Below, in pieces: positions 6,625-9,669 of a stretch of DNA of 24,090 nt. Each line of letters begins with the position of its first letter. The first letter of the stretch is position 1. The notes under the pieces are model-generated. The model did not search any database and was not told the DNA's origin. It saw only the letters and a list, made by a program, of their open reading frames with translations. The stretch is taken from positions 1 to 24,090 of the IMG/VR virus record IMGVR_UViG_3300031925_000034. One strand, given 5' to 3'. The stretch comes from a virus. Taxonomy: Duplodnaviria; Caudoviricetes. A program made the position numbers and the translations under genes.

Positions 6625-6650
6625 AAAAATAAAAGGGCTTGTTAGCCCTC
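6625..6650 (-). terminator. Terminator of leftward accessory operon
   Basis: AGGGCT-aaca-AGCCCT followed by TTTATTTTT on the minus strand, overlapping the RHH stop. Confidence 0.65.
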
Positions 6651-6797
6651 TTTGTTCTCATCTATAACCTCTCTCAATTTTTCTCTTACAAACTCCGACA
6701 TGGAATATCCCATCTCGGCAAGTTTTTTTTCGGCTTTTTCTTTTAATTCGGACGGTAGCTTCACTTGTATATATGCATCGTTCTTTTTTATTTTCAA
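6642..6797 (-). CDS. Ribbon-helix-helix (CopG/RelB-like) DNA-binding protein, Aca-like position; not in ORF track
   Basis: TTG start with AGGAGG RBS; MKIKKNDAYIQVKLPSELKEKAEKKLAEMGYSMSEFVREKLREVIDENKEG (51 aa): beta strand, helix, G-x-S-x-S-E turn, helix. Confidence 0.8.
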   Translation of the reverse strand: MKIKKNDAYIQVKLPSELKEKAEKKLAEMGYSMSEFVREKLREVIDENKEG

Positions 6798-7230: not shown

Positions 7231-7253
7231 ATAGGCGTATCGGCTACGCCTAT
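7231..7253 (-). other. Intergenic hairpin with GCCGA loop (copy A)
   Basis: Minus strand AUAGGCGUA-GCCGA-UACGCCUAU. Confidence 0.75.
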
Positions 7254-7563: not shown

Positions 7564-7580
7564 CCCGCATCGGCTGCGGG
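7564..7580 (-). other. Intergenic hairpin with GCCGA loop (copy B)
   Basis: Minus strand CCCGCA-GCCGA-UGCGGG immediately after a stop codon. Confidence 0.7.
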
Positions 7581-7943
7581 TTAGTTTTCTTCTTTTAAAT
7601 AGTCTAATACATCCACGTGTACAGCAATTCCTTCCCGTGGGTAGATAAGGTCATGGTACTCTTGTGGCAACCAGTCATGTATGCATGTAGGTCTTCCTTG
7701 TGCGTCGAACATTGTTGTGTCATATCTTGGTTGATTACTCCATAGGTATTCCCCGATTTCTACCTCTAACCAATCGGGAATAATTTCACCGTCATCGTTC
7801 CATATTGGGACAAGTCGGACGGGTTGATCTTCCTCCATATATTCTTCTGCTAGCCCGACGTAGTCGTCAGGTAAGTGTTCTACTGCTCTCGCTAAGCGAT
7901 TCCACGTGGTGTAAAATACAAAATCTTCATTAATCTTTTTCAT
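7581..7943 (-). CDS. Highly acidic hypothetical protein (anti-defence candidate)
   Basis: 120 aa, by hand count 27 D/E versus 9 K/R; AAGGAGG RBS. Confidence 0.8.
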   Translation of the reverse strand: MKKINEDFVFYTTWNRLARAVEHLPDDYVGLAEEYMEEDQPVRLVPIWNDDGEIIPDWLEVEIGEYLWSNQPRYDTTMFDAQGRPTCIHDWLPQEYHDLIYPREGIAVHVDVLDYLKEEN

Positions 7944-7977
7944 TTTTTATTCCTCCTTTTTAATTTTTCCCTGCAAT

Positions 7978-8047
7978 AGCAGGTTGAGCGTTGGCGGGCT
8001 GTTATGCCCGCTGTGGGAATTTCACCCACCGTGAACCTTGCCCTGCT
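7978..8047 (-). ncRNA. Twister-sister self-cleaving ribozyme (copy 1)
   Basis: AGCAGG GCAAG GUU CACG GUGGG-UGAAAUU-CCCAC A GCGGGC-AUAACA-GCCCGC C AAC GCUCA A CCUGCU: P1, GCAA/GCUCA internal loop, P2 and two hairpins with a UGNAA loop, matching the twister-sister consensus. Confidence 0.8.
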
Positions 8048-8319
8048 CATAAGAGTAAATCTTCTTCAAAAATTTCTCTTTTTATTTTGTTTACATCTTC
8101 AGTAGCACTAAAGATATACCACTGATTCCCCTCATCCACATCGCATACGTGGATGAGGGCATCTCCATCAATTTTAAAAATGCGTTGCCACCCATTATTG
8201 TTAATCGTGGTGAAGTACATCACTAAATAATCTCCTTTTTTCTCTATCCCAGACAAAAACTCTTCAAAAAGTCCTTCCTCATTTTGTCTGTAATAATTTT
8301 GATTAAAGTTAATCATCAT
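8047..8319 (-). CDS. Acidic hypothetical protein flanked by ribozymes
   Basis: 90 aa, 17 D/E versus 8 K/R; AAGGAGG RBS. Confidence 0.8.
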   Translation of the reverse strand: MMINFNQNYYRQNEEGLFEEFLSGIEKKGDYLVMYFTTINNNGWQRIFKIDGDALIHVCDVDEGNQWYIFSATEDVNKIKREIFEEDLLL

Positions 8320-8351
8320 TTTTCCTTCCTCCTTTTTAATTTTCCTGCTCT

Positions 8352-8414
8352 AGCAGGTTGAGCGTAGCAGCCTTTCGGCTGGCCCGACTTTCACGGCCTG
8401 TACCTTGCCCTGCT
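8352..8414 (-). ncRNA. Twister-sister self-cleaving ribozyme (copy 2)
   Basis: AGCAGG GCAAG GUA CAG GCCG-UGAAAGU-CGGGC CAGCC-GAAA-GGCUG C UAC GCUCA A CCUGCU; P2 covaries with copy 1 (GUA/UAC vs GUU/AAC). Confidence 0.8.
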
Positions 8415-8486
8415 TTATTTAAGAAAATCTTTTCCAAAGATAAACTCAAATTTAATTTGTTTTTCTGAACCTTTTAAATTTACCAT
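8415..8486 (-). CDS. 23-aa leader ORF or gene remnant MVNLKGSEKQIKFEFIFGKDFLK
   Basis: AGGAGGAG RBS, first ORF after the promoter, stop codon abuts ribozyme copy 2. Confidence 0.55.
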   Translation of the reverse strand: MVNLKGSEKQIKFEFIFGKDFLK

Positions 8487-8530: not shown

Positions 8531-8559
8531 ATTGTACCACGCATAATTACCTTTGTCAA
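8531..8559 (-). promoter_or_regulatory. Strong SigA promoter of the accessory operon
   Basis: Minus strand TTGACA-17 bp-TACAAT with extended -10 TG and A/T-rich upstream region. Confidence 0.85.
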
Positions 8560-8579: not shown

Positions 8580-8821
8580 AAAAAATTTTTATTGCTCTCA
8601 AATCCGCTTGTATCAAGGGTTGTAGCGATTTGAAATAAAACTTGCAAAAATTTTTTTAAAAGAATTTTTTATCTCACAAAAAATATTGGTGCCAAAATGG
8701 TGCCCAAAAGTCTCTCTAAATGTCATAAAATATCAAAAAATATCACAAAATAAAATGCCTTAAAATGCAGTAGTACCAATGGTTTAAAGCCATTTTTCTA
8801 ATCTCACAAAATACTCATGGA

Positions 8822-8871
8822 TTACGCTCACATCGTAGAGGCCACAGGTTCGAATCCTGTTAACCCCACCA
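8822..8871 (+). other. attP core: 3' half of tRNA-Val(CAC)
   Basis: TTACG-CTCACAT-CGTAG anticodon arm, ACAGG-TTCGAAT-CCTGT T arm, TAACCCC-ACCA end; no D arm or 5' acceptor strand upstream. Confidence 0.88.
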
Positions 8872-8888: not shown

Positions 8889-8920
8889 AAGGCACTAAAA
8901 AGGTGCCTTATTTTTGTTTT
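8889..8920 (+). terminator. Terminator after tRNA fragment (probably bidirectional)
   Basis: AAGGCAC-taaaaag-GTGCCTT then ATTTTTGTTTT. Confidence 0.65.
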
Positions 8921-8925
8921 GGTGC

Positions 8926-9669
8926 CTATTTGGTGCCTAAATTTTTTCCTATCTGTTTGACTGCATTTTTCTTCATCTCTAGTAAAACATGAGAGTACAC
9001 GTCTGCCGTTGTCGATACTCTTGCATGCCCCATCAACTCTTGAACAATTTTGAGATTTACGCCAGCCTCTAACAACATCGTTGCAAAAGTGTGCCTAAGA
9101 GCATGTAAATTTACATCTTTAATTCCTGCTTTTTTGAGTAATTCATAGTATTTTCTATTCAAATTTCTTGGATGAATATAAGTGCCATTTTGTGTGCAAA
9201 AAACCGGCTTATCTTTGCCATAATTCCCTTCCTCCAACATTCTTATTTGGTGCCTCCTTAGAAACATTAGAAGTATATCTAAAATAGGAACAATCCTTTT
9301 AGATTTTTCAGTTTTAGGCTCTTGTATAACTAACCCTTTTTCTTTTGTATAAACTAATCCTTTTGTAACGGAAATGGTTTCATTTTTAAAATCTATGTCC
9401 TGCCACGTCAAAGCAAGAAGTTCGCTTCTTCTTAATCCCGCTAGTAATAACGTTGCAAATGCAGCTCCTAATCGGTCTTCTTTTAAAACTTCTAAAAATC
9501 TATCTCTCTGCTCTTTTGTAAGTATCTGTATCTCTTTTTGTTTTTTTCGTGGTAATGTAACCGCTTCAGCAGGGTTATTAAGAATTAGCTTATTTTTTAC
9601 CGCTTGTTTTAAAGCACCTCTGACAATATCGTGCAGTTTATAAATTGTTGCTGGTGATTTCCCTTGCAA
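8926..9669 (-). pseudogene. int: Tyrosine integrase, N-terminally truncated
   Basis: Catalytic GLRRSE, PKT, HALRH, MGH and VY present; only 247 aa, begins inside the core-binding domain (GKSPATI), no clear RBS, overlaps repressor end. Confidence 0.85.

Follow-up and report, generated by a model that had tools for sequence, protein, structure and literature searches.

Two predicted self-cleaving ribozymes in an accessory operon of a temperate phage are each followed by a short hairpin that reuses one strand of the ribozyme's own closing stem, and comparison with homologous loci indicates that each hairpin supplies the 3' strand of P1 with a spare partner, apparently kept by compensatory change across the twister-sister family. 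The hairpin itself is real and, judging from the sequence comparison, is selected in a large minority of the family. We infer its function, leaning modestly towards a post-cleavage 5' cap for the downstream mRNA, combined in this lineage with a role as a Shine-Dalgarno decoy.

Results

The window, by which we mean the whole 24,090-nucleotide stretch analysed, is a 24-kb temperate-phage record carrying tail, lysis, integrase, repressor, replication and terminase genes. The accessory operon is encoded on the minus strand, to which all operon coordinates below refer, between the lysis genes and the integrase, and it extends from a sigma-70-type promoter-like site (8531..8559; 11/12, 17-nt spacer, extended -10) to a terminator-like stem-loop (6631..6652). 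It contains five small ORFs without a family and, at its end, a ribbon-helix-helix (CopG-type) gene (6642..6797; Pfam PF01402, 22.3 bits, cut-off 20.5). Neither the four larger operon ORFs nor a 23-codon ORF could be placed in a PHROG or Pfam family, and one Pfam match among the operon ORFs, at E 0.03, was below its cut-off and was disregarded. The 23-codon ORF (8415..8486) is the first of the operon, and its TAA (8417-8415) lies one base before P1 of ribozyme 1; a 90-aa ORF without a family (8047..8319) lies between the ribozymes and ends in a TGA (8049-8047) that overlaps P1 of ribozyme 2, to which the A of the codon belongs; and a 120-aa ORF without a PHROG or Pfam family (7581..7943) is encoded downstream of ribozyme 2. 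Stop codons abut each ribozyme, as the initial annotation had stated. The 23-codon ORF matches both ends of a longer gene at locus L459, resembling an in-frame internal deletion. The ribbon-helix-helix gene is a candidate autoregulator and also closes related operons (L466, L473), and the genes between the ribozymes differ among G000, G001 and G002 while the RNA parts stay.

Parts of the operon match G001, the genome of locus L219, labelled as a Thermoanaerobacter, at 79-92% identity (90-92% in the promoter-like stretch), so the host of the phage is probably a thermophilic Firmicute. G001, which bears a near-identical element, also encodes a gene scoring over the cut-off of TIGR00649, a family that we take to be RNase J. 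Between the operon promoter and the integrase, TGGTGCC-type boxes are repeated at 8686-8723 and 8919-8956 and a partial tRNA-like stretch lies at 8806-8860, which suggests an attP region. Both operon gene junctions without a ribozyme are occupied by a different hairpin, whose AGCCGAU loop is invariant while the outer stem varies; one lies at the next gene junction (7564..7580) and the second at 7231..7253, and each precedes an A-rich spacer and a Shine-Dalgarno sequence. Further low-GC phage records show this arrangement too (L630, L459, and two copies each in L632 and L677). An Rfam scan of the window gave no match to these hairpins, a 15-mer scan returned 76 loci, about chance level by estimate, and a longer stem together with a Shine-Dalgarno-like site was present in only 5 of 64 distinct matches; the AGCCGAU hairpin is possibly a protein-binding or nuclease-blocking element of these operons.

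Ribozyme 1 (8352..8414) is a three-way twister-sister ribozyme matched by Rfam model RF02681 (42.3 bits, gathering threshold 34), with the P1 5' strand at 8414-8409, G5 at 8408 and the P1 3' strand at 8357-8352. Ribozyme 2 (7978..8047; P1 5' strand 8047-8042, G5 at 8041) is divergent, and Rfam finds no match to it at E values up to 10, leaving it below the gathering threshold of RF02681. A covariance model, R1, was built from 31 three-way homologues, none of which came from the window's cluster and which did not include L219; this model scores ribozyme 1 at 61.3 bits and ribozyme 2 at 56.6 bits (E about 1e-13), and it also detects a second divergent copy in G002. The fold of ribozyme 2 has a z of -3.6. 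Both ribozymes resemble twister-sister, as described in the available text of PMC5660989, in their L1 residues (G5-C6-A7-A8-G9 and G59-C60-U61-C62-A63, here GCAAG and GCUCA), in the SL4 loop and in stems P1, P2, P4 and P5; the phage intergenic context and the absence of P3 are shared with known three-way members of the class. G5 and A63, which are needed for twister-sister cleavage (PMC5660989), are present in both. In the alignment of the 31 homologues (A1), 94.5% of cells pair and 17 of 19 pairs change on both sides, figures that hold partly by construction, the hits having been pre-filtered for these same stems.

The SL4 loop G29-U30-G31-N-A33-A34-G35-Y36-C37 is fully matched in ribozyme 1. 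Ribozyme 2, unlike RF02681, where G35 goes with C12-G56, carries U35 in place of this conserved residue together with the pair U12-A56. A G35.(G56-C12) base triple has been described for twister-sister (PMC5660989), and U35 occurs in 4/4 rows of A1 with U12-A56 and in 0/27 others; this fits a swapped base triple rather than decay, with the reservation that the four rows may share ancestry. Ribozyme 2 is filed here as a putative twister-sister-like variant. The U35 subgroup comprises window 8047-7978, L356, L505, L517 and L527, and the members rescanned with Rfam (the window's, L356, L505 and L517) were all missed.

In PMC5660989, twister-sister cleaves at C62-A63 and gives a 3' product of 6 nt; in this class the P1 3' strand begins two bases past the cut, and the new end carries a 5'-OH. 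From this position, the cuts are placed by alignment at 8360/8359 in ribozyme 1 and at 7986/7985 in ribozyme 2. Two bases past each predicted cut begins a hairpin, CCUGC-UAGA-GCAGG at 8344..8357 (hairpin 1, -7.4 kcal/mol) and CCUGC-UAUU-GCAGG at 7970..7983 (hairpin 2, -9.0 kcal/mol). In both copies CCUGC(U) doubles as the P1 3' strand, whose P1 partner is AGCAGG (8414-8409 and 8047-8042), so that the hairpins are alternative pairings of this strand, and both were found as the initial annotation had read them. Its proposal that the hairpin would stand at the 5' end of the 3' product follows from the published cut site (PMC5660989), which, taken as the cut position of the family, puts the predicted stem-loop no more than a few bases from the start of the RNA. 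The predicted 3' products would begin with two A and the 5-bp hairpin, followed by 10-12 A-rich bases and then AGGAGG, the latter at 8328..8333 (10 A-rich bases after hairpin 1) and at 7952..7957 (12 A-rich bases after hairpin 2), and the order ribozyme, hairpin, ribosome-binding site holds at both copies. The hairpin is the sole predicted structure of these products, and 3/200 and 2/200 shuffles, respectively, fold as well. It is built from the P1 3' strand and hence is not separate from the ribozyme's own stems, and its predicted strength at 60-70 C, -2.3 to -4.8 kcal/mol, is weak for a thermophile. The two copies share one window and so do not count as independent cases; the role of chance was therefore assessed in homologous loci.

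Twister-sister pattern scans were run over viral, genome and metagenome contigs, six and then one more; in three of these, 127 of about 290, 126 of about 390 and 121 of about 280 matches were listed, so that the loci collected are a sample. Chance matches to the pattern were removed by filtering on structure (P2 3/3, P4 3/4, P1 of at least 3, a folding P5). Filtering of 533 loci yielded, among the matches listed, 177 distinct flanks, which group into 72 clusters by similarity of the downstream sequence, and removal of the window's own cluster (4 sequences) left 173 sequences in 71 clusters. Because 25 downstream bases served to delimit the clusters, these do not represent wholly independent lineages. 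When rescanned with Rfam, 37 of 40 loci gave a twister-sister match (the exceptions were L356, L505 and L517), and a search of 21 genomes of G001's family found one ribozyme, already in the set. Hairpins were counted, with cluster weighting, as contiguous stems that begin with the P1 3' strand and enclose a loop of 3-10 bases, and the counts were compared with three nulls of 500 draws each, in which P1 was swapped among loci, the downstream sequence was shuffled, or the searched interval was moved 15-45 bases on. Per-locus shuffle tests of pairing probability were weak at most loci; because such shuffles retain the C-rich arm bases, cluster-level tests were used.

A hairpin at -4.5 kcal/mol or better is present in 19.7 of the 71 clusters (own cluster removed; among the matches listed), against 6.5 expected from P1 swaps, 6.0 from shuffles and 5.4 from shifted intervals, and 0/500 draws of each null reach the observed count. 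At -3 kcal/mol the corresponding numbers, again among the matches listed, are 29.5 of 71 against 13.3, 11.5 and 9.9. Where P1 strands do not start with GGG, 6.8 of 36 clusters carry the hairpin (1.1 swap, 1.8 shuffle, 1.6 shift); in the GGG group it is carried by 12.8 of 35 clusters, compared with 4.2 shuffled and 3.9 shifted, and the swap null is uninformative there (9.8, with 50/500 draws reaching 12.8). The mirror control, an upstream partner for the P1 5' strand, was flat (1.0 vs 1.8; 4.0 vs 3.5). Of the 21 distinct P1 3' 4-mers, nine are each accompanied by a matching complementary arm at -4 or better, and differing P1/arm pairs occur at the Rfam-positive loci L029 (CUCGA/UCGAG), L350 (GGAC/GUCC), L115 (GGCU/AGCC) and L101 (GGUG/CAUC), while the CCUGC/GCAGG stem is kept in the close relatives L078, L459 and L003 and in both G002 copies, with loops of 3, 4 or 5 bases. 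Conservation in homologous loci, which the initial annotation had named as its own test, is thus upheld by compensatory changes in distant homologues, though 41.5 of the 71 clusters among the matches listed have no hairpin at -3 kcal/mol and the feature is not universal; L219 is without one although its core is nearly identical to that of ribozyme 1.

A hairpin followed by a Shine-Dalgarno-like site was found in 20.1 of the 71 homologue clusters among the matches listed. Counting the window's own cluster, 24 of 31 hairpin clusters have 0-1 unpaired 5' bases, in a search that allows at most 2-3. In 26 clusters selected by their core stem only, the base that follows the arm is able to pair with N64 in 18 and is a G in 6, three clusters with U64 and G being counted in both; A/U covariation at N64 is borderline (p 0.047 and 0.073) and weaker at stricter thresholds. 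Extension of the stem to the product end favours, but does not prove, selection on that end. Partners further away, 11-60 nt downstream, were rejected as a family-wide feature (pairings of at least 6 bp in 10.3 clusters against 9.1 in shuffles, 115/300), L041, L059 and L499 being striking single cases without a family-wide excess. In the gut-phage loci L041, L059, L087 and L038, a conserved stretch about 45 bases past the ribozyme can pair with the first six bases of the product and shows compensatory change; across the family such pairing is not above shuffles.

Nearest-neighbour folding, which omits tertiary and magnesium contacts, gave active folds of -25.4 and -34.9 kcal/mol for uncut ribozymes 1 and 2, hairpin folds of -24.0 and -34.7 kcal/mol with P2 kept, and unconstrained hairpin folds of -27.8 and -39.2 kcal/mol. 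At 37 C the probability of P1 in the uncut RNA is 0.04 and 0.001, with the hairpin favoured, on secondary structure only; because the hairpin is favoured over P1 at this level, cleavage would depend on tertiary energy or on folding order. With the transcript truncated, P1 prevails up to near-completion of the arm, which comes 8-9 bases beyond the P1 strand.

A pistol scan of viral contigs gave 99 matches, 81 of them distinct; the cut was placed in 54 and not in 27, and 51 distinct products in 43 clusters were compared with the three nulls. Product hairpins at -2 or better number 8.0 against 3.1, 2.9 and 2.7 expected (5, 3 and 1 of 500), and those at -4.5 number 3.5 against 0.8-1.3 (14-30 of 500). 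The first base of the product is paired in the clean cases L544, L539, L607 and L628, and L548, L571 and L602 look misparsed; the weaker enrichment at pistol ribozymes is suggestive only. In L544, L539, L607, L628 and L627, the closing-stem strand folds a blunt 5-bp product hairpin whose sequence differs by lineage. At L326, L373 and L462, twister-sister ribozymes lie at most 300 bases from pistol or twister-P5 ribozymes in the same operons.

Discussion

Several other readings of the hairpin were weighed. It may act before cleavage, competing with P1 to set the cleaved fraction, while a terminating ribosome melts the P1 5' strand and couples cleavage to upstream translation; we consider this rather unlikely. 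The active and hairpin folds do lie within 1.4 and 0.2 kcal/mol of each other when P2 is kept, the hairpin fold without constraint undercuts the active one by 2.4 and 4.3 kcal/mol, and among the matches listed an upstream open frame ends 15 nt or less from G5 in 53 of 70 clusters, a proximity that may reflect compact gene spacing. However, P1 has a head start of 8-9 bases, and a finished 5' end accounts at least equally well for a stem that extends onto A63 and N64. The special link to stop codons and ribosomes that the initial annotation had raised is not borne out, a stop lying within 15 nt in 25/30 hairpin-bearing and 28/40 hairpin-lacking clusters (p = 0.26). It is quite unlikely that the arm serves mainly as a decoy, keeping the anti-Shine-Dalgarno-like P1 strand off the ribosome-binding site, with nuclease protection incidental. 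Predicted Shine-Dalgarno accessibility is 0.97-0.99 with the native arm (0.82 for ribozyme 2 with a longer flank), and randomising the arm leaves the freed CCUGCU strand, by prediction, to engage AGGAGG via CCU.CU pairing, lowering accessibility from about 0.98 to 0.20-0.21 at 37 C; this effect, however, shrinks at higher temperature (0.40-0.48 at 60 C, 0.64-0.74 at 70 C), and most hairpin-bearing homologues have a P1 of GGGY, GGAC, GGCU or GGUG that is unable to pair with a Shine-Dalgarno sequence. The decoy role is not general, because in 2.8 of 71 clusters among the matches listed arm and Shine-Dalgarno overlap and because the Shine-Dalgarno is itself the nearest partner in several CCU-type loci. 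At L107, L121, L057/L061, L435, L517 and L531, all CCU-type, the freed P1 strand meets this partner often across a GAAA loop, and cleavage at such loci could lower translation instead.

Release of the product was part of the initial annotation, in which the arm would prevent re-ligation or lingering of the two fragments. What stands of this is that the hairpins (-7.4 and -9.0 kcal/mol) compete with a 6-bp product duplex that is fairly tight at 37 C (predicted Kd about 2e-8 M); at 60-70 C, however, the duplex is weak (2e-5 to 7e-4 M) and would fall apart unaided, as should the 4-bp P1 of 108 of 205 descriptor hits among the matches listed. Cofolded products with native and randomised arms gave no clear difference, other A/U-rich pairings dominating, and in the portions of the literature searched ligation by the twister-sister class was not found reported. 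We regard product release as a very unlikely main role. An arm without function, arising as a short duplication of the upstream P1 strand (a target-site-like repeat) or as a chance match in C-rich spacers, is already disfavoured and is given a low probability. Any second partner necessarily repeats the first one directly, over half of the clusters have no arm, and the swap null comes close to the count observed in the GGG group; yet shuffled and shifted intervals give a third of that count, the upstream mirror side shows nothing, the G that duplication predicts after the arm is present in only 6/26 clusters, and arms often depart from the upstream P1 strand by G-U-compatible changes.

The preferred reading, a post-cleavage 5' cap, would operate as follows. 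P1 would fold first during transcription, 8-9 bases of synthesis preceding the spare arm, and would then be held by tertiary contacts; after the cut, the released P1 3' strand would fold onto the spare arm, giving a product that starts with a 5'-OH, two bases, a 5-bp stem-loop, the A-rich spacer and the Shine-Dalgarno. This terminal stem-loop may hinder 5'-exonucleolytic entry of RNase J and keep the CCUGCU strand off the AGGAGG, the latter a point absent from the initial annotation; cleavage would thereby divide the operon into pieces that are each stabilised and open to translation, and would not mark it for decay. Shielding from RNase J by the hairpin is plausible, and a 5' hairpin or a ribosome-binding site is described in the available text of PMC3997798 as stabilising long downstream mRNA regions in B. 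subtilis. It should be noted, as a point against the cap, that the window's own products keep two unpaired 5' bases; two added 5' bases destabilised a mycobacterial RNA, by a triphosphate-dependent route (available text of PMC5360333).

The ribozyme class, protection by a 5' hairpin and the engineered RiboJ layout are all known already, and their natural combination in a two-state closing stem appears to be new. In the portions of the literature searched, no paper was found to describe a natural twister-sister ribozyme with a product-refolding hairpin. The RF02681 model ends five bases after P1 without a downstream hairpin, so the feature lies outside the Rfam model, and it covaries with P1 in at least nine sequence forms. 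As in the clustered prophage hammerheads of PMC3088659, which cut polycistronic RNA in vitro and for which a role in processing such RNA has been proposed, several ribozymes flank single small genes near an integrase; those ribozymes belong to another class, and no mention of a product hairpin was found in the available text of that paper. The RiboJ synthetic insulator (available text of PMC6206723) likewise places a hairpin at the 5' end of the cut mRNA between the ribozyme and the ribosome-binding site, and raised mRNA and protein were measured there, with stabilisation and exposure of the ribosome-binding site proposed as causes. RiboJ is engineered, however, and its hairpin is an appended 23-nt element, whereas the window's element is natural, reuses the ribozyme's P1 strand and forms a hairpin mutually exclusive with the active fold. 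Such elements would offer compact natural insulator parts for Gram-positive and thermophilic hosts.

For self-cleaving ribozymes of phages, processing of polycistronic RNA has been suggested but not shown (available text of PMC6765202). Phage twister-sister, pistol and hammerhead ribozymes may share a two-state closing stem in which a terminating ribosome gates cleavage and the same hairpin then caps the downstream mRNA; we think this unlikely, but if true, the two-state closing stem would be a protein-free, translation-sensing module for mRNA processing. The glmS ribozyme, the only well-understood bacterial case, uses its cut to destroy the mRNA: in B. subtilis, self-cleavage likewise leaves a 5'-OH upstream of a Firmicute gene, and RNase J1 enters at that end and degrades the product (available text of PMC3997798), whereas the ends in the window are predicted to be closed by a stem-loop. 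A hairpin selected to close the new 5' end would mean the opposite of glmS, with cleavage products meant to last and to be translated.
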